This document shows, one piece after another, positions 6,604 through 48,083 of a stretch of 54,470 bases of DNA (position 1 is the stretch's first letter; each line of letters opens with the position of its first letter). The notes below the pieces were generated by a model, which saw only the letters and a list, made by a program, of their open reading frames with translations, ran no database searches and was not told the origin of the DNA. Origin of the DNA: Patescibacteria group bacterium (GTDB taxonomy: Bacteria > Patescibacteriota > Patescibacteriia > Patescibacteriales > UBA12465); assembly GCA_041651355.1 (NCBI GenBank), contig JBAZJK010000002.1, positions 1-54,470 on the forward strand, in the 5' to 3' direction. A program made the position numbers and the translations under genes.

Positions 6604-9287
6604 AAGTTGCTCTTGTGCAATGCCCGGGCTGGGGCAGGGATTGCCCTCCTTATACGCTGGCGCTTTTTGCAGCATATCTGCGTCAAAATGAACATCGTGT
6701 TTTCAGTTACGATATCAATAACGCACTTTATTGTAGCGGACCTGACAAGTACAGGAGGATGTGGGATGACAAGGATCTCTATTCCTTTTGGAGCAACAAG
6801 TCCCTCATTACAGAGTTTATCCGGGACAACGAGAGGATGGTGGAATTTCAAGTAAAACATATTTTAGACAGCGGCGCCAAAATCATCGGTTTTAGCGTTC
6901 AGTTTAGTTCTCTGCTTGTCAGTTTAGAGGTAGCTCGCAGGATTAAGGCTAAATCCAGGGATAGAATTATTGTTTTTGGAGGTCCGGACTGCTGCCGCCA
7001 TTTACGGGGCTCAGAGATAATAAAAGAGGATTGCGTAGATGTCGTAGCGCTTGGCGAAGGAGACACAACATTATTAGAGTTAGTGAATATGGTAGAACTG
7101 GACGGCAAGGTAGAAAATTGCCCGGGCGCCTTACTTAAAAAAGAAGGGAAGATTTTTGATTGCGGCGACGGGATTGCAGTGAGAGATCTTGATCTTATCC
7201 CCTTTCCAGATTATAGCGATTTCAGAAAAGATATTATGGCCGGTCATTATCGTCAGCCCGAACGCCTAGAGATATTTGACAGCCGGGGATGCATTACTCG
7301 TTGCCATTTCTGCAGCGAATGGCAGTTTTGGCAAAATTATCGTTCCATGAGCGGAGAGAGAATATTCGAAGAGGTTGCTTATCAGATAAGGCGTTTTCCC
7401 GGAACGGAATATTTTTATTTTATCGGTTCACTCTTAAACGGGAATATAAAATCATTAAACAGGTTTTGTGATTTGGTAATACAGAATAGTCTGGTGGTAA
7501 GATGGGCCGGTCAGGCGGTAATAAGGCCAGAGATGAGCGCGGAACTTTTAGGAAAAATGAGAAAGGCCGGTTGCGAATGGTTGGGATATGGCATTGAAAG
7601 CGGCTCGCAGAGAGTAGTGGACAGCATGAATAAGCACTTCTTTATTGCGGATGCCGAAAGGGTATTAAGGGATACCCATCAGGCAGGGATTGGCACCCAG
7701 GTTAATTTTATGTTCGGCATTCCCACTGAGACATTGGAAGATTTTAAGGAAACACTGGAATTCCTTAAAAGAAACAGGGAGAACATTGATTCGGTTCTAG
7801 CAAGCCAATCGTTCTGCGTTTTAGACAAAGGCACATACCTTTACAACCATGCCGAGGAATTCGGCATCAGGAATCCCGATCATCATCTGTATTGGGAGAC
7901 AGACGGCAACGATTATCCGGAGAGATTCAGAAGGTATGAGGAATTTTGTAGTCTAGCCCTGTCTTTGGGGCTTCCGGAGACATCGGGCGTACTAAGGTTG
8001 AAACCCGACAAATGGGCGCTCTTGGGGGATTATTACCTTTTCAAGAAAGACTATCCCATGGCCAAAGAGTGCTTTCTTAAATCTATGGAAAGAGAATCCA
8101 GCAACAATACGGTCTCTGCGAAATTAGAGCTATGCGTCAAAGATCCGGAGGGAGCTCCTGGCGCTGCCCAGCGGGCTGAACTGCAGATCTACCCGGCAGA
8201 AGTTGCCGGAGAGCTTAGCGGGATGCAACAGAAAATCAGGGATGCGCTTAGTCGCTTTGGCCTGGCGGGGAAATTACGCAACTTCCTTGCAATGGAAAAA
8301 GAGAAACAGGAGCGCAGGGAAGAATTGGAATCCCATCCTTACTGGTTGACCATTGATCCCGCAAATTTTTGCACCCTTAGGTGCCCTTTTTGCCCTACCG
8401 GACAGAATCGCGGCTCTAGGGAAAAAACCAAGCTTTCCTTCGATAGTTTTGAAAAGATAATAGATGAGCTAGGCCCGTATTTAATCCATATAGATTTCTG
8501 CAACTGGGGGGAGCCCCTTTTGAATAAAGACATCTATAAGATGATAAGATGCGCCAAGGGGTATGGTATCGACACAAAGATAGACTCAAACCTTAACGTT
8601 TTCAGCGAAGAGGACGCCGAGGACATCGTATCATCGGGGCTGGATAAGATAATCGTCTCGATTGACGGGGCAACTCAGGGGTCATATTCGAAATACAGGA
8701 TAGGAGGGGATTTTAACGTCGCGTTAAATAACCTCAGGTTATTGATTGAGAAAAAAAGAGAGCTCCGCAAAGCAAATCCGTATATCTGCTGGCAGTTTCT
8801 TGTCTTCAGGCACAATGAGCACGAGACCGAAAAAGCGAAATCCATAGGCAGGGACCTGGGGGTTGACGACGTATCGATCACCAAGGCGTTTATCGGTAAT
8901 AAAGATTGGATACCACTTAATGAGCACTACAGTCATTACAAAAATAGCGAGATTGGCGATGACCAGTATACCTCCGGCTATTTCAAGTCTGCCAACGAAG
9001 AATTCTGTAATTGGCCGTGGGAAGCAATAGTAATAAATTCCAACGGATCCGTTTCGCCATGCTGTTCTGTTGAAGACGAAAAATACGATTTCGCAAACAT
9101 ACTGAAGCAGCCGTTTAAAGAACTCTGGAATAACGAAAAGTATATCAGGGCAAGAAGGTTTATCGGCAAGAGAGGCGGATGCGGTAGAGATAACGCAAAT
9201 ATATGCCACGGATGCAGGCACTCAGGACTAATCAATATAGATATACTTTCTTGCCACTCGTTATTTAATCGCGATGATAATAAATAA
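6600..9287 (+). CDS. Cobalamin-binding radical SAM fused via a TPR-like linker to a second radical SAM/SPASM domain (modules E+D)
   Basis: N-terminal B12-binding-type region (MKVALVQCPGWG...PP, GFSV, FGGP, GEGD). CITRCHFC at 7290-7313, GIESGS. TPR-like WALLGDYYLFKKDYPMAKECFLKSME. Second motif CTLRCPFC at 8370-8393, NWGEP, CNWPW...PCC...CHGC. Confidence 0.9.
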   Translation: MKVALVQCPGWGRDCPPYTLALFAAYLRQNEHRVFSYDINNALYCSGPDKYRRMWDDKDLYSFWSNKSLITEFIRDNERMVEFQVKHILDSGAKIIGFSVQFSSLLVSLEVARRIKAKSRDRIIVFGGPDCCRHLRGSEIIKEDCVDVVALGEGDTTLLELVNMVELDGKVENCPGALLKKEGKIFDCGDGIAVRDLDLIPFPDYSDFRKDIMAGHYRQPERLEIFDSRGCITRCHFCSEWQFWQNYRSMSGERIFEEVAYQIRRFPGTEYFYFIGSLLNGNIKSLNRFCDLVIQNSLVVRWAGQAVIRPEMSAELLGKMRKAGCEWLGYGIESGSQRVVDSMNKHFFIADAERVLRDTHQAGIGTQVNFMFGIPTETLEDFKETLEFLKRNRENIDSVLASQSFCVLDKGTYLYNHAEEFGIRNPDHHLYWETDGNDYPERFRRYEEFCSLALSLGLPETSGVLRLKPDKWALLGDYYLFKKDYPMAKECFLKSMERESSNNTVSAKLELCVKDPEGAPGAAQRAELQIYPAEVAGELSGMQQKIRDALSRFGLAGKLRNFLAMEKEKQERREELESHPYWLTIDPANFCTLRCPFCPTGQNRGSREKTKLSFDSFEKIIDELGPYLIHIDFCNWGEPLLNKDIYKMIRCAKGYGIDTKIDSNLNVFSEEDAEDIVSSGLDKIIVSIDGATQGSYSKYRIGGDFNVALNNLRLLIEKKRELRKANPYICWQFLVFRHNEHETEKAKSIGRDLGVDDVSITKAFIGNKDWIPLNEHYSHYKNSEIGDDQYTSGYFKSANEEFCNWPWEAIVINSNGSVSPCCSVEDEKYDFANILKQPFKELWNNEKYIRARRFIGKRGGCGRDNANICHGCRHSGLINIDILSCHSLFNRDDNK

Positions 9288-9338
9288 AGGACACGCCGTT
9301 TATCTAAATAACCCCGGTTTTGATACAGAAGCAATATT

Positions 9339-12113
9339 ATGAAAATCGCACTTATTCAATGCCCGGTATGGGGCACCTATGATCCGCCGCTCGCCTTAGC
9401 CCAGCTTTCCGCCTGTCTGAAGAAAGACGGACATGAGATATGCGCTCTGGATTTGAATATCGAGCTATATCTTAGCCGCCAGGAAAATTATAAGAATACC
9501 TGGGCCTGGGAACAATCTCTTTTTTGGTACAATCAGGAGTGCGTATCAAAATTTCTTGCCGATAACAAAGACACAATAAATAAATACGTAGAACAGATTG
9601 TTGACGGCGGATATGGCGTGGTTTGTTTTTCTGTAACGGCAGCTTCAAAACTGTCCAGTCTGGAATTAGCGCGGTCAATCAAGAAACGCAACAAGGGTAT
9701 CATTATAATATTCGGAGGTACCCTATTTTTTGACAGGAATTTTATAAAAGTAATATTAAGCGACGCATCCGTAGATATCGTAGCATGCGGAGAAGGAGAA
9801 GTAACATTATCTGAATTGGCAAGGCTCATAGAAAATAAAGAACACTTAGATGCCTGCCGCGGGATAGCTTTTAAAAATAAAGGCATACGGGTTAACCCCG
9901 AACGGCCTTTAATCGGAGATTTGGATGATCTACCGTTTCTGGATTTTTCCCAATTGCCGCTATCCAACTATGACGATAAAGGCCACGTCGCATTTCTATC
10001 CAGTCGCGGTTGTTGGCAACAATGCGTATTCTGCAGTTCCCGGACATTCTGGGCCGGCTACCGCAGGATGAGCGCTAAGAGGATTTTTGATGAAATACAC
10101 TTCCACTATAAAAATAATGACGAGGTTAGGCATATTGACTTCTTGGATTTGATGTTTAACGGAGATATAGAAGAGCTTAATTCATTCTGCGACCTGATGA
10201 TTGGTTCTGAGTTAAAGGGGAGGATATGTTGGGCAGCTAATGCTATTATCAGGCCCGAGATGACCCCTGCGTTATTAAACAAGATGAAGGCGGCAGGCTG
10301 TAAGCATCTCATCTATGGCATCGAATCAGGGTCGCAGAAGGTATTGAATTTAATGAAAAAACGATACAGGATAGAAGATGCCGATATCGTAATCAAGGCT
10401 ACCCATGAGGCCGGCATAGTAGTGACCGCTAATTTTATGTTTGGTTTCCCCGGAGAGAGCGAAGAAGATTTCGGGCAGACGCTTGGTTTTCTCAAGAGAA
10501 ATGCCAGGTATCTGGATAGGGCTTATCCCAGCCGCACCTTTTGCGCCCTGGAGGAAGACAGTTATTTACACGCGCATTTAGAAGAATTCGGTATCAAGCC
10601 CAATCCGCCCAATCATTTATATTGGGAGTCGCTCGACAGCCAAAATACCTACCCCGAGCGACTGAGGCGATGCGAGGAATTCTGCAATCTCGCATCTTCC
10701 TTGGGGATCGAAGTAGCCAGCGGCGTACAGACATCCGTAGAGCTAGACCGCTGGTTTAATCTGCTGCATTACTACGAACAGAAAAAAGACATAAAGAACA
10801 TGCTTCAGTGCTGCCTGAACTATTATAAATCAGAGCCCGATAACGAGTTCGTTGTGGGAAAAATTGAAAAATATTTTTATGGATTACAAGAAGAAGAAAG
10901 AGAAAAAATTCTCGGAGCGAGGTTATTCTCCGAATTGCAGATAGTTGTCAATAAGATAGGCTCCAAATGTTCTGCCCTCGCCTTAGTGTCAAATCAACAG
11001 GTAGAAAAGATTGGCAGAGAAAAAAGCTTTGCTTTAGCGATAGCCGAACAGCGGGACAATAAACAGCTCACCGAGACGGAATATCATAATAATGAGAGTA
11101 GCCTTAATTCCTGGCCAAGGGTTTTGTTCATTCAAGCCTCCGGACCATGCAATTCAAGTTGCGTATTTTGCTCCCGCGGCGATAATTACAAGATGTTTGA
11201 CTTGGAGGAATTTAAGAAAGGTTTTGTTGAAAATTTCTACTTTTTGTTTTATATAGCGGAAAAGATTGTTTTAACGGGTTCAGGCGAATTTCTTCTTTTG
11301 CCCGAGGCAGAAAAAATATTGGATTATTTCGATGAAAATTTTCCGCATATAGAGAAGATGTTTGCGACCAACGGCTCGGGTCTCCTCCCCAGCATAGCTA
11401 AAAAAATCGTAGATAGTAAAAGCAGGTATACAATTCATTTTTCTTTACACGCTTCCAATCACAAGCTGCACAAAACCCTTACCCGGATGGATAATTTTTA
11501 TAAGATATTAGGTCAATTGAAGTATTTACTTGATATCAGGAAAGACAAGGAGAGGCCAGCCGTCCACCTTACCTTTGTAGCTACAACCTTGAACATCGAG
11601 GACCTTCCTAACTTCGTCAGGTTGGCTTCCAACCTGGGAGTCGATAAGGTCGTATGTTATTATAACTATATATATGTACCTGCCCAGAAGTATCTCTCAT
11701 GTTTTTTTAAACAGGATATTACCAACAGCGTGCTGGATGAAGCCGAAGATTTAGCAAGGAGTCTAAAGGTACAACTTGAGCTCCCCCCCAGGTTTAAACA
11801 GAAGGAATATCCCAAATTAGATATCTGCCGCGAGCCGTGGACGCAGGTAATGTTTGATATCGACGGTAATGTTTTGCCATGTGATGCCTCGGAAGACTTC
11901 CGAGGCAATCTCAAAAATGCCAAACATTTCCATGAGATTTGGAACGGGCAGCATTACCGCAGGTTAAGGGAGTCTTTAATTAATGGCACCAGCGATTGTT
12001 TTAAGTATTGTTTTAGGGCAAATCCGGCGGCGGTTAATGATTTTCGCTCCCATGTCATACGTAGAGGCAGGGAGGCGTCAGAAATAGATGTTTATTGGGG
12101 GGATAACTTTTAG
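9339..12113 (+). CDS. Cobalamin-binding radical SAM fused to a second radical SAM/SPASM domain (modules E+A)
   Basis: MKIALIQCPVWG...PP, FGGT, GEGE. SRGCWQQCVFC at 10011-10034, GIESGS. Second motif CNSSCVFC at 11148-11171, SLHAS, LSCFF, LPPRF, CREPW. Confidence 0.9.
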   Translation: MKIALIQCPVWGTYDPPLALAQLSACLKKDGHEICALDLNIELYLSRQENYKNTWAWEQSLFWYNQECVSKFLADNKDTINKYVEQIVDGGYGVVCFSVTAASKLSSLELARSIKKRNKGIIIIFGGTLFFDRNFIKVILSDASVDIVACGEGEVTLSELARLIENKEHLDACRGIAFKNKGIRVNPERPLIGDLDDLPFLDFSQLPLSNYDDKGHVAFLSSRGCWQQCVFCSSRTFWAGYRRMSAKRIFDEIHFHYKNNDEVRHIDFLDLMFNGDIEELNSFCDLMIGSELKGRICWAANAIIRPEMTPALLNKMKAAGCKHLIYGIESGSQKVLNLMKKRYRIEDADIVIKATHEAGIVVTANFMFGFPGESEEDFGQTLGFLKRNARYLDRAYPSRTFCALEEDSYLHAHLEEFGIKPNPPNHLYWESLDSQNTYPERLRRCEEFCNLASSLGIEVASGVQTSVELDRWFNLLHYYEQKKDIKNMLQCCLNYYKSEPDNEFVVGKIEKYFYGLQEEEREKILGARLFSELQIVVNKIGSKCSALALVSNQQVEKIGREKSFALAIAEQRDNKQLTETEYHNNESSLNSWPRVLFIQASGPCNSSCVFCSRGDNYKMFDLEEFKKGFVENFYFLFYIAEKIVLTGSGEFLLLPEAEKILDYFDENFPHIEKMFATNGSGLLPSIAKKIVDSKSRYTIHFSLHASNHKLHKTLTRMDNFYKILGQLKYLLDIRKDKERPAVHLTFVATTLNIEDLPNFVRLASNLGVDKVVCYYNYIYVPAQKYLSCFFKQDITNSVLDEAEDLARSLKVQLELPPRFKQKEYPKLDICREPWTQVMFDIDGNVLPCDASEDFRGNLKNAKHFHEIWNGQHYRRLRESLINGTSDCFKYCFRANPAAVNDFRSHVIRRGREASEIDVYWGDNF

Positions 12114-38098: not shown

Positions 38099-39477
38099 AG
38101 GTACTGTTGACAGTCCCTGCCGTTGATACTTGCTATGAGCGCGTCCCGAGCATTGGGCTTATGAACCTCTACCTTATAGGCAAGAGGCTTGGGTGCGATA
38201 TTGAATTATTGGATATATCCGACCTGCCTTATCAGAGAGGACTACGCAGGCTTTTGGCAAAGCGATATGATGTGATCGGCATTTCGTGCAACTTTACTAA
38301 CGCCGCCCCCTACTGTATGCAATATGCCAGAGAGATAAAAGAAAAATACCCCGATACGCTCGTCATCTCCGGAGGTAATCATGCCACCCTCGTTCCGGAA
38401 GACCTTTTATTTAACAAATACGATTATATTCTCTATGGGGAAGGGGAGTTGGTCTTTGCAGATTTTATAGGCAGGATTCTAAAGGGCAAGCCCGCAGATG
38501 ATATGAGCGGGATCTTCTATTTAAAGGGGGGCAAAATAATAAGGAACGCCCCCCGCCAGCCCATAGAGGACCTGGATACCCTGCCGTTTAATGATTATTC
38601 TGATTTTGACCTGGAGTATTATTTCCGGCGTTCAGGCCTGCGCTACATAAGCATGGAAACCTCTCGCGGTTGTATCTATAATTGCTCGTTTTGCTCTACC
38701 GTGAAGATGTGGGGGCATAGATATAGACATAAGAGCCCGGAGAGGGTGCTTAGCGAATTCAGGGTTGCCGGGAAGCTAGGACTTGACTTCATATTTGTAG
38801 AAGACGATGACGCGGCACTTGACGAAGATAACCTGCGCAGCTTCTGCGGACTGCTGGCTCGCGAAGATATAGGCGTGCCCTGGGGGATGGGGGTAGGCTC
38901 CGCGTCCATCAAGAAAGAATCTACGTTTGACCTTATAGCGAAAGCAGGATGCGTTAAGGTTAATGTAAACATAGAATCGGCTAATCCGCGCATTTTGAAG
39001 GAATACCGCAAGCCTTATGCCATAGAAGATAACAGGGCCTTATGCGAAAATTTAAAGAAGAGGAAAATCCTAATTCATAATCATGGTATAATTGGCTTGC
39101 CTGGCGAAAGTATAAAAGAAACGCTTAATACCTATTTTTACCTTATCAAGACATCTCCGCTTTGGCATATCAGTATCTTGGAGCCGAGGCCCGGATCCGA
39201 TTATTGGAGAAGATGGGATAAAAAGGGAGACGTTAGGCAATATAGGCTTTTTGGCAAGGCCAATGTTATACTAGGCCGAAAGAAATTAGCTAGTTATTTA
39301 TTATACAGGATTTTTGCTCTATTTTATTTTTTGAATCCCGCCCGAGTTTACAAGGCGCTCTTCGGAGCTGATAAAGGCACAAGATACAGTTATCGTGTGC
39401 AGTATTATGTCGCTTACAGAACCGTAAAGGCGAACCTTTTTAACCTTTTTTCGGCTAAGATCAACGATGTTAAATAG
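38095..39477 (+). CDS. Cobalamin-binding radical SAM protein (class B methylase-like)
   Basis: PSIGL, GISC, SGGNHAT, GEGE, SRGCIYNCSFC, IES, IIGLPGE. Confidence 0.9.
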   Translation: MKVLLTVPAVDTCYERVPSIGLMNLYLIGKRLGCDIELLDISDLPYQRGLRRLLAKRYDVIGISCNFTNAAPYCMQYAREIKEKYPDTLVISGGNHATLVPEDLLFNKYDYILYGEGELVFADFIGRILKGKPADDMSGIFYLKGGKIIRNAPRQPIEDLDTLPFNDYSDFDLEYYFRRSGLRYISMETSRGCIYNCSFCSTVKMWGHRYRHKSPERVLSEFRVAGKLGLDFIFVEDDDAALDEDNLRSFCGLLAREDIGVPWGMGVGSASIKKESTFDLIAKAGCVKVNVNIESANPRILKEYRKPYAIEDNRALCENLKKRKILIHNHGIIGLPGESIKETLNTYFYLIKTSPLWHISILEPRPGSDYWRRWDKKGDVRQYRLFGKANVILGRKKLASYLLYRIFALFYFLNPARVYKALFGADKGTRYSYRVQYYVAYRTVKANLFNLFSAKINDVK

Positions 39478-41263
39478 TTTTTATAAAAGCACAGAAAAAA
39501 AATATTTTTTGTTTTTTTCTTTTGTATTATTCGCCTCGCTGTTTATTATTTATTTTCCTTGCGTTCATTATCCCCCTCTGAGCGATTACTGGGAAAACTT
39601 TTATTTTTATCAACATCTCGATAAGCTCCCCGGAACAATAAAATGGCTCCATGTTTTAAACCATGATCCTTTTGAGCATATGCGTTATCAGCCCTTATCG
39701 CGCATATTCTCTTATTTTTTATATCTGACATTCGGCTCCAACTTCATCTTTTACAATATTTTAAACTTCATCTTTTATTTTTTGAGCCTCTTGATCCTCT
39801 ACAGGTTCGCCCTTTATTTTATCAAGGATAAGATTCTCATCGCAGCATTCATCTTTCTCTACGCTTTTCTATTCAATCACTTTGATATCCTGCTGTGGTC
39901 CTGTCATATACATATCATCGCGGGCTTCTCTTTATTTCTGCTGGGATTTATTGCCTTCATGGAATACCTTAAAAAGGGGGGGATGCATTTAGTTTTAGCG
40001 AGCGCGCTACTTTTCTTAATAGGAATGTTCTGTTATGAAAGTTTCTTCCTCTGGCCCCTCGGGATTGTCATATTGTCCTCTATAAAAAGCCTTAGAACAC
40101 AAGGAAAGCACGCGGCCAAGCCGCTTAAAAAGCCCATTTTCTTAATATTGGCAAGCGTTTATATTTTTTATTTTCTCGCCTTTCTTTTCACACGCTCTTT
40201 AAAAACATACATTAACCCCCGCTATAGTTTCTACGATTTTTTACAACCGCATGTCTTTGTTCTATCTGCCCTCTCTGTAATTTTTAATATTTACAACAAT
40301 CTCGCTGTAGCTATCCTTCCCATAATCGTTTTCCCCCTTAAGGTGGCAGAAAATATATATATGGCCGGTCCGTTGATTAATTATATCAACCGAGGTAATA
40401 ATTGGTTTGTTTATTCGATGGGCGGCTTATTTAGCTTGATCGTAGCAGCGCTCTTTGTTTATCTCTATAAAAAAAGATACGTTGAAGAATGGAAGATAAT
40501 AGTTTATTTCTTATTTTTGCTAACCGCAGAACCTTATATAATTTTTTTCTGCAGGCTTCTTGATAACGCCTTAGGATATTGCCTCAGCGAATTCAGGTAT
40601 CAGTATATACCCAACGCCTTTATTATCTTAACTGTTGCTTTTATCATTGAAAGGTTCGTTAAGCCATCCAGGCGCAGGAAGAAATTAATATTTGCCTTTT
40701 TGGCGCTAATCTTTTTCTTAAACATTGTTTGTATCCACAGGGTCATGAACATATATAATTACCATCTTTCCGGGCTTCAGAGGATGATCTCCAGCATCAA
40801 AAGAGGCATAGGCCAAGGGTATATAAACAGCAGTAACAGGTTGTATATAGATGAGGACCTGCCGGATTACCTGCCGCATTTATGTTGGAACATTGAAATG
40901 GGGGAATTATTTATTCCCAATGGCAATTATAAATGGATGTTTTCAGAGAAAGAGATGGAGAATTTTACAGATGCCCCTCAGAATGCCAGATGGGTTATCA
41001 GCAAAGAAAACTTCGGTGTTATTGACAAAAGCCAGGAGAGCCTTTCCGGAAAAGGTAGGAAGATAAATACTATCAGAGATAAATACTATATTACGCCAGG
41101 CAAGGACTACGTCTATATTGAATTAGGGTATCGCTACCGGAGGGAGGGGCGCCATGACCGCGAGAGAAGGATGTTTGAGAAGGCGCTGGAGTTGAATCCG
41201 AGAAATGAAGAAGCTAGGGGAGAACTATACCGCTGCCAGAGTAAGGGAACAGCGCTGTTTTAA
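39467..41263 (+). CDS. Polytopic membrane protein with C-terminal TPR, probable GT-C glycosyltransferase
   Basis: PPLSDYWE acidic first loop, YQPLS, about 11 TM segments, FRYQY. Terminal TPR YIELGYRYRREG...FEKALELNP. Confidence 0.7.
   Translation: MLNSFYKSTEKKYFLFFSFVLFASLFIIYFPCVHYPPLSDYWENFYFYQHLDKLPGTIKWLHVLNHDPFEHMRYQPLSRIFSYFLYLTFGSNFIFYNILNFIFYFLSLLILYRFALYFIKDKILIAAFIFLYAFLFNHFDILLWSCHIHIIAGFSLFLLGFIAFMEYLKKGGMHLVLASALLFLIGMFCYESFFLWPLGIVILSSIKSLRTQGKHAAKPLKKPIFLILASVYIFYFLAFLFTRSLKTYINPRYSFYDFLQPHVFVLSALSVIFNIYNNLAVAILPIIVFPLKVAENIYMAGPLINYINRGNNWFVYSMGGLFSLIVAALFVYLYKKRYVEEWKIIVYFLFLLTAEPYIIFFCRLLDNALGYCLSEFRYQYIPNAFIILTVAFIIERFVKPSRRRKKLIFAFLALIFFLNIVCIHRVMNIYNYHLSGLQRMISSIKRGIGQGYINSSNRLYIDEDLPDYLPHLCWNIEMGELFIPNGNYKWMFSEKEMENFTDAPQNARWVISKENFGVIDKSQESLSGKGRKINTIRDKYYITPGKDYVYIELGYRYRREGRHDRERRMFEKALELNPRNEEARGELYRCQSKGTALF
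39730..41214 (+). repeat. 1485-bp direct repeat, copy 1 (copy 2 at 41552-43036)
   Basis: attcggctccaacttcatc ... agaaatgaagaagc recurs at a constant offset of 1822 nt. The translated proteins are identical over this span and no mismatch was seen in spot checks. Confidence 0.92.
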
Positions 41264-41288
41264 TCCTGAAACAGGAGGCCGGGGTTAA

Positions 41289-43070
41289 GTGTTAAAGATG
41301 GTTTTAAGGGTAATAAACGCTAGGGGGAATCTAATATTTTTTTTTCTGCTTCTTGGAGGCCTATTCCTGGCAGCTTATCCCTCATTTTTCTATCCGCCCT
41401 TAAGCGATTATTGGGAGATGTTTTATTCTTTTCATAATCTAGGGCGTTTCCCCGGACAGATAAAATGTCTGCATATTCTGGGCTTTGACCCGCTAGAGCA
41501 AGTAGGATTCCGTCCGCTTGCAAACTTATTCTACTATATTTTTTATCTTTTATTCGGCTCCAACTTCATCTTTTACAATATTTTAAACTTCATCTTTTAT
41601 TTTTTGAGCCTCTTGATCCTCTACAGGTTCGCCCTTTATTTTATCAAGGATAAGATTCTCATCGCAGCATTCATCTTTCTCTACGCTTTTCTATTCAATC
41701 ACTTTGATATCCTGCTGTGGTCCTGTCATATACATATCATCGCGGGCTTCTCTTTATTTCTGCTGGGATTTATTGCCTTCATGGAATACCTTAAAAAGGG
41801 GGGGATGCATTTAGTTTTAGCGAGCGCGCTACTTTTCTTAATAGGAATGTTCTGTTATGAAAGTTTCTTCCTCTGGCCCCTCGGGATTGTCATATTGTCC
41901 TCTATAAAAAGCCTTAGAACACAAGGAAAGCACGCGGCCAAGCCGCTTAAAAAGCCCATTTTCTTAATATTGGCAAGCGTTTATATTTTTTATTTTCTCG
42001 CCTTTCTTTTCACACGCTCTTTAAAAACATACATTAACCCCCGCTATAGTTTCTACGATTTTTTACAACCGCATGTCTTTGTTCTATCTGCCCTCTCTGT
42101 AATTTTTAATATTTACAACAATCTCGCTGTAGCTATCCTTCCCATAATCGTTTTCCCCCTTAAGGTGGCAGAAAATATATATATGGCCGGTCCGTTGATT
42201 AATTATATCAACCGAGGTAATAATTGGTTTGTTTATTCGATGGGCGGCTTATTTAGCTTGATCGTAGCAGCGCTCTTTGTTTATCTCTATAAAAAAAGAT
42301 ACGTTGAAGAATGGAAGATAATAGTTTATTTCTTATTTTTGCTAACCGCAGAACCTTATATAATTTTTTTCTGCAGGCTTCTTGATAACGCCTTAGGATA
42401 TTGCCTCAGCGAATTCAGGTATCAGTATATACCCAACGCCTTTATTATCTTAACTGTTGCTTTTATCATTGAAAGGTTCGTTAAGCCATCCAGGCGCAGG
42501 AAGAAATTAATATTTGCCTTTTTGGCGCTAATCTTTTTCTTAAACATTGTTTGTATCCACAGGGTCATGAACATATATAATTACCATCTTTCCGGGCTTC
42601 AGAGGATGATCTCCAGCATCAAAAGAGGCATAGGCCAAGGGTATATAAACAGCAGTAACAGGTTGTATATAGATGAGGACCTGCCGGATTACCTGCCGCA
42701 TTTATGTTGGAACATTGAAATGGGGGAATTATTTATTCCCAATGGCAATTATAAATGGATGTTTTCAGAGAAAGAGATGGAGAATTTTACAGATGCCCCT
42801 CAGAATGCCAGATGGGTTATCAGCAAAGAAAACTTCGGTGTTATTGACAAAAGCCAGGAGAGCCTTTCCGGAAAAGGTAGGAAGATAAATACTATCAGAG
42901 ATAAATACTATATTACGCCAGGCAAGGACTACGTCTATATTGAATTAGGGTATCGCTACCGGAGGGAGGGGCGCCATGACCGCGAGAGAAGGATGTTTGA
43001 GAAGGCGCTGGAGTTGAATCCGAGAAATGAAGAAGCGGTTTTTGTATTGGAAGAGTTAAGGATGAGGTAA
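41289..43070 (+). CDS. Paralog of 39467..41263: polytopic GT-C-like membrane protein with C-terminal TPR
   Basis: GTG start. PPLSDYWE, FRPLA. Identical to the upstream gene from FGSNFIF to NPRNEEA. Confidence 0.7.
   Translation: MLKMVLRVINARGNLIFFFLLLGGLFLAAYPSFFYPPLSDYWEMFYSFHNLGRFPGQIKCLHILGFDPLEQVGFRPLANLFYYIFYLLFGSNFIFYNILNFIFYFLSLLILYRFALYFIKDKILIAAFIFLYAFLFNHFDILLWSCHIHIIAGFSLFLLGFIAFMEYLKKGGMHLVLASALLFLIGMFCYESFFLWPLGIVILSSIKSLRTQGKHAAKPLKKPIFLILASVYIFYFLAFLFTRSLKTYINPRYSFYDFLQPHVFVLSALSVIFNIYNNLAVAILPIIVFPLKVAENIYMAGPLINYINRGNNWFVYSMGGLFSLIVAALFVYLYKKRYVEEWKIIVYFLFLLTAEPYIIFFCRLLDNALGYCLSEFRYQYIPNAFIILTVAFIIERFVKPSRRRKKLIFAFLALIFFLNIVCIHRVMNIYNYHLSGLQRMISSIKRGIGQGYINSSNRLYIDEDLPDYLPHLCWNIEMGELFIPNGNYKWMFSEKEMENFTDAPQNARWVISKENFGVIDKSQESLSGKGRKINTIRDKYYITPGKDYVYIELGYRYRREGRHDRERRMFEKALELNPRNEEAVFVLEELRMR
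41552..43036 (+). repeat. 1485-bp direct repeat, copy 2
   Basis: See copy 1. Both boundaries were checked by eye. Confidence 0.92.
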
Positions 43071-43210: not shown

Positions 43211-45070
43211 GTGTATAAAACAACCTTTCTCCAGAAGATAGGCCTGATTCTTGTAGGGATATTTTTATGCGCTTTGATTATTGAAGTAAGTTTACGTACC
43301 GCAGGATTTTTAATTATATTAATGCGGGAACGCGATAATGCCGCATCTTTGAGAGATAAAGGGGCTTATCACATTCTATGTTTAGGAGAGTCTACTACCG
43401 CCTTGGGGGGGGAATCGTCTTGGCCCGCGCAGCTGGAGACTGTTTTGAATGAACGTAACAGCGGCATTAGATTTAAAGTAATAAATGGCGGGAGAGAGGA
43501 TATTGATACCGCTACCATTTCCTCAACATTAGAAAATACGCTTGTTAAATATCATCCCGATATGGTTATATCCATGACAGGCATCAACGATGGTCCCCGT
43601 ACAGTGCCCCACGAATACCTCGTACTCGTAAATAAAAAGCCATTTTTTTCGAGACTTAGAGTCTATAAATTAGCGAAAGCGATTTTTTTGCATATTATGA
43701 ACAAAGCGAGGGAAATGGGTATTTATAAAACCCGGGTTTCTCTGAATAATCGGGTTTCTAGTTATGCTGATGCGGGCTACAGGAGCAAGCGTTTTAGGAA
43801 AACAGAGAATATGGCACTTGATACTTTGAAAATCGACCCCAACAATTCCGAGGTCTATAATGAATTAGGGCATCTCTATAACAATCTTAATAGGGTCCGC
43901 GAGGCAGAAGAGATGTTCAAGAAGGCCTTGAAGATCTCTCCGGTGATGTTTAGTGCATATGACGGACTGGGGGCTTGTTATGCTAGCCAGAGCAGGTACG
44001 GCGAGGCAGAAGAGATGTTCAAGAAGGCATTGAAAATCGACCCCAACAATTCCGAGGTCTATAATGAATTAGGGAGGCTCTATAGCAAAACAAAAGACTA
44101 TCATCAGGCAACAGTGATGTTTAAAAAAGCAATGAGCTTAACGATTGCCGAGTCTTCTCAGGATAATGAAATTGACGCAAGGCAAGAAGAGCGCGCCTAT
44201 AGCGAAACAGAAGAAGCATATAGAAAAGCAATAGAGCTTACGCCGCTCGACTATAATAAATACATAGTGCTAGGGTCTTATTACCGAGAGCAAGAAAGAT
44301 ATGCCGAATCGGAAAAAATTCTTAAAGAGGCCATTCGTATAGCCCCAGATAATGCAAGGGCCTATTTTGAATTAGGAACTTGTTATATTAACCAGCATAG
44401 ATATAAGGAACAAGAGAAAATGTTCAGGAAGGTAATCGAGATTAACCCATCTGACAGTGCTGCCTATTGTGAATTGGGTCATCTTTATAGCAGTCATCAG
44501 AGATACGGCGAGGCAGAAGAGATGTTCAAGAAAGCAATAGAGCTTGCCCCGTACGAAATTGAGGCCTATCTAGGATTAGCCACTTGCTATAGAGAGCAGG
44601 GCAAGCTTGAAGGAGTAGAAGAATTAGCCAATTTGCTCAGGAAAAGAGAGATACAGCACGACCGCATTTACGGCATCATAGCCCTCTCTTATTTAGATGA
44701 GGGGCAATTCAAAAAGGCAGAGATTTTTATTAAGAAAGCAAACGAATTCAGGGCCAAGTATTACAATCCCGTAACTTACTATAACTACAGAAGAATCAAG
44801 AAGATTGTTACAGAAAGAGGAATTAAATTTGTCTGTATGCAGTATCCGATGCGCAGCATAGAACCTTTGAAAAAGATTTTTGACTCTAACGAAGACATCA
44901 TCTTCGTAAGCAACGAAAAGATCTTCAAGGAAGAGCTAAAAAAAGCCAGATACGAAGACCTCTTTGTAGACAGTTTTGGTGGCGAGTTTGGTCATGCTAC
45001 TGCCCGCGGCAATAGGCTTATTGCCGAGAATCTCGCGGATACCATAATCAAAGAGGTCATCAGTAAATAG
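43211..45070 (+). CDS. Membrane-anchored SGNH-family protein with inserted TPR array
   Basis: TM LQKIGLILVG.... Block I LGESTT, INGG, TGIND. About 8 TPRs (VYNELG...AEEMFKKAL.I.P). Block V DSFGGEFGHAT. Confidence 0.85.
   Translation: MYKTTFLQKIGLILVGIFLCALIIEVSLRTAGFLIILMRERDNAASLRDKGAYHILCLGESTTALGGESSWPAQLETVLNERNSGIRFKVINGGREDIDTATISSTLENTLVKYHPDMVISMTGINDGPRTVPHEYLVLVNKKPFFSRLRVYKLAKAIFLHIMNKAREMGIYKTRVSLNNRVSSYADAGYRSKRFRKTENMALDTLKIDPNNSEVYNELGHLYNNLNRVREAEEMFKKALKISPVMFSAYDGLGACYASQSRYGEAEEMFKKALKIDPNNSEVYNELGRLYSKTKDYHQATVMFKKAMSLTIAESSQDNEIDARQEERAYSETEEAYRKAIELTPLDYNKYIVLGSYYREQERYAESEKILKEAIRIAPDNARAYFELGTCYINQHRYKEQEKMFRKVIEINPSDSAAYCELGHLYSSHQRYGEAEEMFKKAIELAPYEIEAYLGLATCYREQGKLEGVEELANLLRKREIQHDRIYGIIALSYLDEGQFKKAEIFIKKANEFRAKYYNPVTYYNYRRIKKIVTERGIKFVCMQYPMRSIEPLKKIFDSNEDIIFVSNEKIFKEELKKARYEDLFVDSFGGEFGHATARGNRLIAENLADTIIKEVISK
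43826..44074 (+). repeat. 45-bp exact repeat (43826-43870 and 44030-44074), spacing 204 nt = two TPR units
   Basis: ttgaaaatcgaccccaacaattccgaggtctataatgaattaggg occurs twice. Confidence 0.85.
44711..45065 (+). repeat. 355-bp gene-tail repeat shared with 47724-48078; inner 247 bp (44812-45058) also at 46253-46499
   Basis: Offsets 3013 and 1441 nt. One silent mismatch seen (ggcaat vs ggcaac at 45013). Confidence 0.9.
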
Positions 45071-45089
45071 CCCTGCAGTATATATACAA

Positions 45090-46514
45090 ATGCCGATTAA
45101 GCAAAAAGTAAGCCTGGTATTATTTGGGATATTGCTGTGTTGTTTTATTCTTGAGTTGGGGCTGCAATTGTCGTCTTTCGCATTCCTGTCATTAAGAAAG
45201 CATAAAAATAAAACACCACTTAAATCTTTATCTAATGGTGTCAGCTACTGTATTTTATGCCTGGGTGAATCAACCACAGCCTTAGGAGAAGATAGCTCTT
45301 GGCCTACGCAACTCGAAAAGATATTAAATGAGAATAAGAACGGAATAAGTTACAAGGTTATAAATATGGGTAGAATGGCGGTTGAATCCTCAGCTGTGCT
45401 GTCGCTCCTAAAAGCAGACTTGGATAAATACAATCCTGATATGGTAATTACTATGATAGGCGTGAATGACTGGGTAGGGACCATACCGTATCAAGATTCT
45501 CGGGTTTTTAGAATCAAGTTATTTATAAGCAGACTGAAAAGCTACAAATTAGCAAGATTAGTTTGGCTGCATACGATAAATAAGGTTAATCAGGCGGCGC
45601 AATCTAAGAAGCAGAAGGATGGGGGGTCTCTTAGAATTTCATCTATTTCTAGCGGCGGAAAGCAGTTAGGTGCAGAAGCGGCTTTATCTAACGGGCAGGC
45701 ATTCGTTGAGTTAGGGTATTATTATTATGAGAGAGGGGAATATAAAGAAGCAGAGCATGCTTTTAAGAAAGCAATAAGTGCGGATTCCCAGGATGCAGCT
45801 GGGCATATCGGCTTAGGGCAATGTTATAGAGAACAGGACAGGAATAAAGAGATGGAGAAGGCGGCAAAACAAGCGATTAGGCTTGACCCCGGCAACGCAG
45901 ATGCCTATATCCTGCTTGGAAATGCCTATCAGGATCGGGAAGATTACCGGAGTGCGGAAGAGGCGCTGAAACAGGCCGTCGAACTTAATCCGAGGTGGGA
46001 ACCCGCTTATACAGAATTAGGAAGTTGTTATAGGAAACAAGGAAAGGTAAAAGAGGCGCACGACCTAGCTAAAAGAATTATAAAGGAAGGGCTGGTTAAT
46101 GATCGTCTTTATGGTTTTGTGGCTACTTCTTATGTGGAGGAAGGCAGATATTATGAAGCCGGCGAATATTATAGAAAGGCAGAAGAATTTCGGTTGAGAT
46201 ATTATAATCCTGCTACGAGGCACAATTATAATAAACTCAGAGAAATCCTGGTAGAAAGAGGAATTAAATTTGTCTGTATGCAGTATCCGATGCGCAGCAT
46301 AGAACCTTTGAAAAAGATTTTTGACTCTAACGAAGACATCATCTTCGTAAGCAACGAAAAGATCTTCAAGGAAGAGCTAAAAAAAGCCAGATACGAAGAC
46401 CTCTTTGTAGACAGTTTTGGTGGCGAGTTTGGTCATGCTACTGCCCGCGGCAACAGGCTTATTGCCGAGAATCTCGCGGATACCATAATCAAAGAGGTCT
46501 CTTGGAAGGAGTAA
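45090..46514 (+). CDS. Membrane-anchored SGNH-family protein with inserted TPR array (paralog 2)
   Basis: LGESTT, INMG, IGVND, about 4 TPRs, identical C-terminal GEFGHAT block. Confidence 0.85.
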   Translation: MPIKQKVSLVLFGILLCCFILELGLQLSSFAFLSLRKHKNKTPLKSLSNGVSYCILCLGESTTALGEDSSWPTQLEKILNENKNGISYKVINMGRMAVESSAVLSLLKADLDKYNPDMVITMIGVNDWVGTIPYQDSRVFRIKLFISRLKSYKLARLVWLHTINKVNQAAQSKKQKDGGSLRISSISSGGKQLGAEAALSNGQAFVELGYYYYERGEYKEAEHAFKKAISADSQDAAGHIGLGQCYREQDRNKEMEKAAKQAIRLDPGNADAYILLGNAYQDREDYRSAEEALKQAVELNPRWEPAYTELGSCYRKQGKVKEAHDLAKRIIKEGLVNDRLYGFVATSYVEEGRYYEAGEYYRKAEEFRLRYYNPATRHNYNKLREILVERGIKFVCMQYPMRSIEPLKKIFDSNEDIIFVSNEKIFKEELKKARYEDLFVDSFGGEFGHATARGNRLIAENLADTIIKEVSWKE

Positions 46515-46517
46515 TTC

Positions 46518-48083
46518 ATGCGACATGCCAGGCTTCGTTATAAGATAGCAGTGGTATCCTTGGCGATCTTTTTTTCTTTTTTTGCGCTTGAGGCGGTGAT
46601 GCGTCTCGAAGAATCTATAACTATTTCATTAAAACACTACAAAAATATACAATTTCCCAAAAATGAAGGTGTATATTGCATTTTGGCCCTCGGTGATTGC
46701 ACTACTGCATTGGGAGGAATGGATTCTTGGCCAGCGCAGTTAGACAAAGTATTAAATGCACAGAATACAGGCGTAAGATTTAAAGTAATAAATAAAGGCA
46801 GAACAGATACGGACACCTCGGTCATCGTTTCAAAGCTGGATGACCTGCTAAATAAAATTAAGCCAGATATGGTTGTCGTAATGAGCGGTATCAACGATGG
46901 CATACGCGATACACCTTATGATAATTTAGAGATTCCTAATAAAAAGAGGTATCCTCCCCAGTTAAAGATATATAACTTAACGAGAAAAATTTACTTAGCA
47001 ATTGTTAAAAATATTAAAAGAACAAGATATAGCCGCAAGAGCAATATTTCTAAAAACTGCGAATCCGGAATTATTAATAATGGTAATTCTTATGCATTTG
47101 GGAAGCAATACAATAGGGCGGAGGCGATATTTAAAAGAAAAATAGAGATTAATCCCCGGGATGATGAGGCATATCTTAGGCTGGCGCGTTATTATAAAAA
47201 GAACGGGGCTTATTCTCAGGCAGTAGAAGCACTTAAAAAAGCTATAGCCTTAGACCCTAAGAATTACAAGGCCTATATCGAACTGGGAGATTGTTATAGT
47301 TCTCATGATGCATTTGTCGAAGCAGAAGAGACATATCAAAAGGCGATAGAGTTAGCACCTGAAAATCACGTAACTTATATGATGCTCGGCTATTGTTATA
47401 GAGATCAAAGAAAACATCAACAGGCAGAGGCAATGTTTAAGAGAGCCATAGTAATAAACCCTAGAAGCGACTGGGCATATGGGGAGCTTGGAAATCTTTA
47501 CGCTGGTTCTAAGCGATGTGCTGACGCAGAAAAAATGTATCAAAAAGCAATAGAGCTTGATCCGAGGCACATCAGCGTTTATGTTGAATTGGGCAGTTGC
47601 TATATGCAGGAAAATAAAATCAGCGAGCTGGAAGAGTTGCTGGAGCAGGCCAAAAAAAGAAATATTTACAATGACCGTTTATATGCGCTTGAGGCCCTGT
47701 ATTATAGGGCCCAAGGAAATGATAAAAAGGCAGAGATTTTTATTAAGAAAGCAAACGAATTCAGGGCCAAGTATTACAATCCCGTAACTTACTATAACTA
47801 CAGAAGAATCAAGAAGATTGTTACAGAAAGAGGAATTAAATTTGTCTGTATGCAGTATCCGATGCGCAGCATAGAACCTTTGAAAAAGATTTTTGACTCT
47901 AACGAAGACATCATCTTCGTAAGCAACGAAAAGATCTTCAAGGAAGAGCTAAAAAAAGCCAGATACGAAGACCTCTTTGTAGACAGTTTTGGTGGCGAGT
48001 TTGGTCATGCTACTGCCCGCGGCAACAGGCTTATTGCCGAGAATCTCGCGGATACCATAATCAAAGAGGTCATCAGTAGATAA
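46518..48083 (+). CDS. Membrane-anchored SGNH-family protein with inserted TPR array (paralog 3; Cys at the nucleophile position)
   Basis: LGDCTT, INKG, SGIND, about 6 TPRs, identical C-terminal GEFGHAT block. Confidence 0.85.
   Translation: MRHARLRYKIAVVSLAIFFSFFALEAVMRLEESITISLKHYKNIQFPKNEGVYCILALGDCTTALGGMDSWPAQLDKVLNAQNTGVRFKVINKGRTDTDTSVIVSKLDDLLNKIKPDMVVVMSGINDGIRDTPYDNLEIPNKKRYPPQLKIYNLTRKIYLAIVKNIKRTRYSRKSNISKNCESGIINNGNSYAFGKQYNRAEAIFKRKIEINPRDDEAYLRLARYYKKNGAYSQAVEALKKAIALDPKNYKAYIELGDCYSSHDAFVEAEETYQKAIELAPENHVTYMMLGYCYRDQRKHQQAEAMFKRAIVINPRSDWAYGELGNLYAGSKRCADAEKMYQKAIELDPRHISVYVELGSCYMQENKISELEELLEQAKKRNIYNDRLYALEALYYRAQGNDKKAEIFIKKANEFRAKYYNPVTYYNYRRIKKIVTERGIKFVCMQYPMRSIEPLKKIFDSNEDIIFVSNEKIFKEELKKARYEDLFVDSFGGEFGHATARGNRLIAENLADTIIKEVISR

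Follow-up and report, generated by a model that had tools for sequence, protein, structure and literature searches.

The 54,470-nt window analyzed here is the entire contig JBAZJK010000002.1 (positions 1–54,470; C2 of the bin) of a Patescibacteria group bacterium (GCA_041651355.1). It carries three co-directional open reading frames (ORFs), g1 (43211–45070, 619 aa), g2 (45090–46514, 474 aa), and g3 (46518–48083, 521 aa), which are separated by gaps of 19 nt (g1–g2) and 3 nt (g2–g3). The three genes, their parts, and the sister gene P0121 introduced below are all encoded on the forward strand. The encoded proteins share one plan, consisting of an N-terminal transmembrane (TM) anchor (residues 10–28 in g1), an N-terminal half of an SGNH hydrolase domain (N-half), an array of tetratricopeptide repeats (TPRs), and a C-terminal SGNH half (C-half). 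Sequence comparisons and a structural model of g2, the paralog used for modelling, indicate that the TPR array is very probably an insertion within a single SGNH domain, located between catalytic block III and the segment composed of a helix, beta4, beta5, and block V.

The N-halves span 43364–43615 in g1, 45243–45494 in g2, and 46671–46922 in g3. In g1 this segment comprises beta1–beta3 and blocks I–III, with Ser61 of block I at 43391–43393. The corresponding segment of g2 contains strands at residues 52–58, 87–92, and 118–122, Ser61 (45270–45272), G94 of block II, and the G124-x-N126-D127 signature of block III, and that of g3 is delineated by its Pfam match and catalytic blocks. The C-halves occupy 44759–45067, 46200–46511 (residues 371–474), and 47772–48080, respectively. 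In g1 the C-half consists of a YYNP neck, a helix, beta4, beta5, and the block V motif GEFGH; the g2 C-half has strands 393–397 and 417–420 and includes Glu446. The block V histidines are His595 (44993–44995) in g1, His449 (46434–46436) in g2, and His497 (48006–48008) in g3. Pfam GDSL/SGNH models are confined to residues ~55–160 of the three proteins; PF00657 matches with 24.9 (g1), 36.4 (g2), and 29.0 bits (g3; cut-off 23.6) over profile positions 1 to ~94–132, which correspond to the N-half only. TPR_1, TPR_2, TPR_8, and other TPR families match mid-protein far above their cut-offs, and the last ~105 residues have no Pfam match. The order of blocks I–III, TPRs, and block V, which a first-pass annotation of this DNA had described for each of the three genes, was thus confirmed by Pfam, motifs, and alignment, and the membrane anchoring it assumed agrees with the N-terminal membrane helix found in g1–g3.

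Blocks II and III, the block V histidine, and a curated-model match, all expected of the SGNH superfamily, are present in g1–g3. The block I serine is present in g1 and g2 (LGESTT) and replaced by cysteine in g3 (LGDCTT). In an alignment of g2 and 39 full-length homologs, S61, G94, G124, and H449 are invariant, N126 and D127 are nearly so (≥90% of sequences), and the block V consensus is GGDFGH. Block I reads CLGEST in 166 family members. The g3 variant ALGDCT (46686–46700), in which the nucleophile codon (46698–46700) specifies Cys in place of Ser and Ala stands in for the family-invariant Cys four positions before it, is unique to g3 among the 255 family members retrieved.

TPR units were counted with a hidden Markov model (HMM) built from the five 34-residue units of g2, whose bounds were set by the helices of the structural model. 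This yielded nine units in g1 (43844–44758, residues 212–516), five in g2 (45690–46199, residues 201–370), and seven in g3 (47076–47771, residues 187–418). In g1, an acidic linker takes the place of half of one unit, and the first unit of g3 is weak. That repeat number differs between the paralogs had been noted before, and this stands; the earlier counts of 8, 4, and 6 were too low, because the last degenerate unit, which leads back into the SGNH fold, had been missed in each gene. The assignment as TPRs is supported both by the curated-model matches and by the 34-residue period of the ten helices in the g2 model, for which Foldseek returned consensus TPR, OGT, and MamA as top matches. Among 192 complete members of the family, the distance between block III and block V corresponds to 1–14 TPR units (mode 5–6), and none of the 192 lacks an insert. 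Short members (123–347 aa) were considered as TPR-less forms and rejected, as they are N-truncated fragments. The idea that insert lengths increase in 34-residue steps was likewise refuted (the mean residual of 0.25 equals the expectation for a uniform distribution), because the lengths of stalk and linker vary.

The AlphaFold2 model of g2, computed from a 40-sequence alignment, has a mean predicted local distance difference test (pLDDT) score of 84.1 and a predicted template modelling (pTM) score of 0.74. To the three strands of its N-part (52–58, 87–92, and 118–122) the C-part adds two confident ones (393–397 and 417–420, pLDDT ~90), giving five confident strands altogether, the number in the five-stranded parallel sheet that defines an SGNH domain. 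Two-residue bridges at 132–133 and 371–372 lie at the base of the insert, where the chain exits and re-enters the catalytic part. The outward leg of the insert (45501–45689) is composed of stalk helices of moderate confidence (residues 138–177) and a low-confidence linker of about 20 residues (178–199; pLDDT 37–73 over the leg), after which the TPR array begins. The last TPR helix (354–370) is continuous with the conserved YYNP neck and the pre-beta4 helix. Judging from the secondary structure and confidence values of this model, the C-terminal end of the arm appears to be fixed rigidly to the catalytic head, and its N-terminal end to be tethered only loosely.

Profile comparisons point in the same direction. 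We aligned 25 family members after excising the TPRs (g2 residues 48–150 and 368–474) and searched the resulting profile against the PDB and Pfam with HMMER. Significant matches were confined to its N-half, through which it retrieved SGNH esterases in the PDB (E 1.5e-5), with the block V histidine in register with that of the PDB esterases at a score below threshold. In hhalign comparisons, the excised profile aligned with the family of a sister gene from the same window, P0121, at 97.7% probability (E 1.5e-12) over 190 columns from block I to block V. P0121 (17432–18649, 405 aa) encodes the fourth membrane-anchored SGNH protein of the locus and has a helical insert of ~110–150 residues at the TPR site of g1–g3, which falls precisely at the excision junction of the profile. 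The insert contains two TPR-like hairpins with a 33-residue period (209–234 and 242–266). P0121 thus resembles g1–g3 in its TM anchor, SGNH halves, insertion site, and locus, and differs in its shorter insert, a block I of GDSW, a block V region of SHVN, and a small family of 16 members. P0121 matches PF00657 from end to end (positions 1–207/208), and its model (pLDDT 75.6, pTM 0.67) can be superposed, across the insert, on compact SGNH esterases over their whole fold. The TM-scores normalised to the target (TMt) are 0.75 for EstA (3hp4), 0.73 for TesA (4jgg), and 0.71 for 1yzf, and 0.60–0.67 for Axe2 and EstL5; the superpositions comprise 326–355 alignment columns for targets of 174–219 residues.

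A TPR-less relative and coevolution lend weaker support to one SGNH domain. The relative is encoded at 8989–9977 of the homolog locus L005 (Omnitrophota GCA_043815185.1), directly upstream of two SGNH–TPR genes. It is frameshifted into an N-terminal ORF with a TM helix and the motif CLGESST and a remainder (9204–9974) with blocks II–V, a short helical insert, and the canonical block V D-x-x-H-P-N. The excised profile aligned with this gene at 91.6% (E 8e-7), colinearly from block II to block V. Coevolution was assessed by mean-field direct-coupling analysis (DCA) of 183 family members with concatenated N- and C-halves, using 12 shuffles of the C-halves among sequences as control. An inter-half pair, I123–L383, has the highest coupling score of all pairs (4.24 versus a shuffle maximum of 2.03). 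Further inter-half pairs (V119–L387, M118–V395, I120–M397, and T121–F394) are individually at noise level, and pairs between beta3 and the pre-beta4 helix plus beta4 make up 5 of the 15 top pairs versus 0–2 in the shuffles. These pairs fit a packing of the pre-beta4 helix on beta3 and a parallel beta3–beta4 ladder, which we regard as supportive only. The proposal that the solenoid is inserted inside the catalytic domain is hence supported by the g2 model, the colinear hhalign alignments, the superposition of P0121, and the inter-half coupling.

The C-half is the hallmark of a large family. A search with the 107-aa C-module recovered 2,477 clusters at 50% identity (E ≤ 0.001), 2,025 of them at E ≤ 1e-10. 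GTDB representatives were scanned as well and contain at least 243 loci of the family, most of which are assigned to Candidatus Omnitrophota. Other labels are Planctomycetia, Elusimicrobia, Firestonebacteria, Margulisiibacteriota, Sumerlaeota, and one Patescibacteria metagenome-assembled genome. Among the best 150 of the 2,477 matches, the C-module is located at or near the C-terminus in all but one (P0202), and the proteins are ~390–680 aa long when complete. Hundreds of independent assemblies encode proteins of the full SGNH–TPR plan in which the catalytic residues are intact. No exact copy of g2 was found when other assemblies were searched for it. We conclude that g1–g3 belong to a large uncharacterised family in which a TPR superhelix is, as predicted from sequence, inserted into the loop after block III. 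The public names of its members are almost always 'tetratricopeptide repeat protein', an annotation that hides some 2,500 clusters common in uncultured lineages, and at minimum the architecture described here could allow annotation pipelines to name SGNH–TPR proteins correctly.

Tandem organization is not restricted to the window. Two or more copies within ~6 kb were found at 15 of 82 loci. The tandem arrays of other genomes comprise 2–9 copies, and arm lengths differ inside them, too. The largest array (L009:1–22043, Omnitrophota GCA_028711865.1) comprises nine SGNH–TPR paralogs in 22 kb with ~3–11 TPR units each. They are interleaved with genes for a sulfatase-fold protein, a PMT_2 glycosyltransferase of the GT-C fold, a B12-radical SAM enzyme, a DegT aminotransferase, and a phosphodiesterase, and two ORFs of this locus without any Pfam match are members of the family.

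The three genes of the window share nearly identical 3' ends. A cassette at 44711–45065 of g1 is identical to 47724–48078 of g3 except for one mismatch at 45013, and g2 is identical to both over the inner ~247 nt (46253–46499, corresponding to 44812–45058 in g1). Outside the cassettes, g1–g3 are ~50–64% identical in DNA (N-halves 58–64%). The cassette borders are sharp in all three genes. Tandem copies in other genomes rarely share long exact runs (179 nt at locus L068, none in most), and the cassettes of the window represent either very recent gene conversion or an assembly collapse. Two GT-C-like genes directly upstream (39467–43070) are 100% identical over ~1.5 kb of DNA after diverged 5' ends (46–88% identity in 60-nt bins), a pattern of partial homogenisation as in g1–g3.

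The cassettes also bear on block V, for which the first-pass annotation had highlighted ExxH in place of DxxH. The variant is real in g1–g3, but it is not a hallmark of the family. Among 238 members with a recognizable motif, 201 have GDFGH, 24 GEFGH, and 8 GNFGH, so that ExxH is a minority variant of ~10% and DxxH the family norm. Because the 3' cassettes are identical, the three ExxH motifs of the window, presumably copied among the genes by gene conversion, count as one event and not as independent occurrences. Glu in block V is an accepted variant of SGNH enzymes (PMC8760489).

The first-pass annotation referred to TPR proteins such as AlgK and PgaA, which scaffold polysaccharide-modifying enzymes as separate domains or proteins. 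SGNH and TPR modules are, however, already combined in a single protein in TviD, the Vi-antigen O-acetyltransferase of Salmonella Typhi and Bordetella, in which an SGNH domain is followed by C-terminal TPRs (PMC8760489). TviD shares with g1–g3 the presence of both modules in one polypeptide, a surface-glycan locus, and a variable TPR number (in TviD, between orthologs). Block V of TviD is DxxH, and its nucleophile is Cys, as in g3. Its TPRs follow a complete SGNH domain that has no TM anchor and resides at the cytoplasmic face, whereas those of g1–g3 lie between blocks III and V behind an N-terminal TM helix, and g1–g3 are thus not of the TviD type in architecture, the level at which (rather than by sequence) the two were compared. 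Compact SGNH esterases such as TesA/TAP (1ivn, 4jgg), EstA (3hp4), Axe2 (3w7v), and EstL5 (8ik1) have the four catalytic blocks in common with g1–g3; unlike these, they are soluble proteins of 175–220 residues with neither insert nor membrane anchor and with DxxH as block V.

The Campylobacter peptidoglycan O-acetyl esterase Ape1 acts outside the cytoplasmic membrane on a glycan. Its SGNH fold is interrupted by a foreign domain, as is proposed for g1–g3; this domain is a CBM35, which was proposed from mutagenesis and a docking model to form part of the substrate-binding groove (bioRxiv 10.1101/2021.09.23.461501). The Ape1 insert is a beta-sandwich between alpha2 and beta14 (numbering of that paper) and, unlike that of g1–g3, not a variable-length repeat array. 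AlgX and AlgK of alginate synthesis, an SGNH and a TPR protein, respectively, bind each other (PMC9734138). AlgX/AlgJ with AlgK, PatB/PatA, and OatA resemble the proposed situation of g1–g3 in that an SGNH enzyme acts outside the membrane on a polysaccharide, but in these systems TPR and SGNH modules are separate proteins and an MBOAT or AT3 protein supplies the acyl group. Two-component O-acetyltransferases (PatA/B, AlgI/J/X, OatA, DltB/D) are defined by such an adjacent or fused MBOAT/AT3 partner, which was not found for g1–g3 in the window, at five other homolog loci, or in the bin. In our literature searches we came across no paper on the family and none that describes TPRs threaded through an SGNH or any other esterase domain; it is this threading that is new here, while SGNH and TPR modules in one chain and foreign inserts in SGNH domains are already known.

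O-acyl groups on bacterial surface polymers are added and removed mainly by SGNH enzymes, and envelope machines usually employ TPR arrays for docking. The whole window is a continuous glycan locus, which encodes four GT-C/PMT_2-like membrane proteins (two with C-terminal TPRs), a YfhO-like protein, lipid-carrier-type GT2 enzymes, GT4, GT9, and GH5 enzymes, many radical SAM and B12-radical SAM enzymes, a class III aminotransferase, and a split transketolase. The short N-terminal tail preceding the TM helix of the SGNH–TPR proteins is rich in Lys and Arg (174 positive charges before versus 100 after the helix in 43 sequences). This suggests a signal anchor with the N-terminus inside and the C-terminus outside, and the catalytic head is probably located on the outer face of the cytoplasmic membrane. 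By sequence, the closest solved relatives of the N-half are small SGNH esterases (E 1.5e-5 to 3e-2), and such esterases are also the closest to the P0121 family by fold (TMt 0.60–0.75). No MBOAT or AT3 gene was found in the 54-kb window, in five other annotated homolog loci (±10 kb), or in the 1.07-Mb, 98%-complete bin, which weakens the acyltransferase option. Of the two activities considered in the first-pass annotation, acyltransferase or esterase, the latter therefore seems more likely to us, in the form of an O-acyl esterase (or of a trans-esterase that uses an unconventional donor), because of the canonical oxyanion-hole and triad residues, the esterase relatives, and the missing acyl-donor partner.

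We thus interpret g1–g3 as putative single-pass membrane-anchored, TesA/Axe2-like SGNH serine hydrolases with an inserted TPR arm that would act as O-acyl esterases on a surface glycoconjugate, and assign a probability of roughly 0.55 to this reading. Its functional part is tentative and falls somewhat short of an even chance. The data show the architecture, the conservation of the catalytic residues, the size of the family, and the variation of the arm; we infer topology, substrate, the preference for a hydrolase over a transferase, and the role of the arm. In the proposed arrangement, the chain would exit the alpha/beta/alpha core after beta3, pass through the helical stalk of ~40 residues and the flexible linker, and return via the TPR array, the last helix of which would be fused to the conserved YYNP neck. 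The following helix, beta4, beta5, and block V would then complete the same five-stranded sheet and place the His (together with Glu or Asp) beside the block I nucleophile. The head would most likely remove, or possibly trans-esterify, O-acyl groups on a surface glycoconjugate made by the surrounding glycan locus. Since paralogs vary in the arm but have conserved catalytic halves, the arm may serve as a recognition or docking element for a substrate or partner. If it sets the choice of substrate or partner, the family would offer a natural series of 1–14 repeats, often side by side, in which to study how a scaffold positions an active site, and an enzyme class so far unrecognised would become part of envelope biology in Omnitrophota and related uncultured lineages. 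A bolder version, which we consider quite unlikely, is a cassette system that patterns a cell-surface polymer. The catalytic head, conserved and homogenised by recombination, would be combined with varied TPR arms (1–14 units, in 2–9 paralogs), giving each paralog its own partner or reach, and acyl marks would be written or erased at defined positions by a TPR array acting as a rigid ruler anchored to the active site.

Several observations weigh against this interpretation of g1–g3 as anchored esterases with a single, interrupted SGNH domain. All of the 50 matches listed in the Foldseek search of the g2 model against PDB and BFVD are TPR proteins, and the C-half alone gave no significant HMMER match to Pfam or PDB SGNH models. 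Only one DCA coupling is clearly above the shuffles, and this pair, I123–L383, rests largely on 16 sequences with I at both positions, possibly of one clade. The charge bias indicating an outside orientation is moderate, and glycan-like gene content surrounds only a minority of the 83 homolog loci. In addition, absences from the bin are uncertain as the contig may be mis-binned, and g3, with Cys replacing the Ser nucleophile, may behave differently.

As O-acyltransferases, g1–g3 would instead acetylate or otherwise acylate the glycan, drawing on cytoplasmic acyl-CoA as TviD does or, outside the membrane, on an unrecognised donor, and the TPR arm would dock on glycosyltransferase or export machinery. 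TviD provides a precedent, being an SGNH O-acetyltransferase that uses its TPRs for membrane association and partner binding and has a Cys nucleophile, as g3 might (PMC8760489), and the complex of AlgK and AlgX (PMC9734138) and the position of g1–g3 in a glycan locus, adjoining TPR-bearing GT-C proteins, are in line with such a role. However, blocks II and III of g1–g3 are canonical and their TPRs inserted instead of C-terminal, both unlike TviD, their closest relatives by sequence and fold are hydrolases, and the charge distribution favours the outside, where acyl-CoA is absent. Together with the missing MBOAT/AT3 partner, this makes an acyltransferase rather unlikely. Unlikely, too, is a role as lipases or (lyso)phospholipases of the membrane surface in lipid remodelling or scavenging, with the tandem arrays reflecting interaction with other cells. 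The best PDB match by sequence is indeed a 'lysophospholipase L1-like esterase', followed by TesA, and JGI names of relatives include the former term, but such names are generic for the SGNH fold, and a lipid-binding feature was not identified in g1–g3, which are anchored and not secreted. Gene neighbourhoods are divided on this point. Many homologs have surroundings other than a glycan locus (UppS, CdsA, and isoprenoid genes at L005, OmpA-like genes at L006), and members of the family occur mainly in Omnitrophota and other small-celled lineages, whereas the neighbours in the window and at loci L008 and L009 are GT-C, radical SAM, and aminotransferase genes.

It is very unlikely that g1–g3 are non-catalytic scaffolds with relic SGNH halves or that assembly collapse of their 3' ends produced partly chimeric gene models. 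Exact repeats of 247–355 nt in three genes and of 1.5 kb upstream are hard for short-read assembly, and g3 does lack the Ser nucleophile. Against this, all three ORFs are open with family-typical C-modules, the tandem copies of L068 also share their exact run of 179 nt, and the occurrence of the same architecture with intact catalytic residues in hundreds of assemblies argues for functional enzymes. The preferred reading of g1–g3 thus remains that of membrane-anchored putative esterases with an inserted TPR arm.

The genome bin containing the window is Patescibacterium-like, as its ribosomal protein S3 is 90% identical to a Candidatus Falkowbacteria protein, and LpxC, Omp85 (BamA), and ribosomal protein L30 were not found in it; a diderm Omnitrophota host for the bin was rejected on these grounds. 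The contig itself is a compositional outlier, with a tetranucleotide correlation to the rest of the bin of 0.847 compared to ≥0.903 for other 54-kb chunks. Neither the C-module nor close homologs of the B12-radical SAM genes were detected in 24 same-family genomes and one same-genus genome, and the C-module is present in 2 of 201 genomes sampled from the phylum. Because of the deviating tetranucleotide composition and because these signature genes are absent in relatives and the C-module is rare in the phylum, the contig represents either a glycan island gained by horizontal transfer or an Omnitrophota-like contig placed in the wrong bin. Across the 83 homolog loci (L005–L087), B12-radical SAM homologs are the most recurrent neighbour, occurring within ~6–10 kb at 16–24 loci (raw counts with no background correction), and other neighbours are GT2 (4–7 loci), PMT_2 (5), and transketolase (4).

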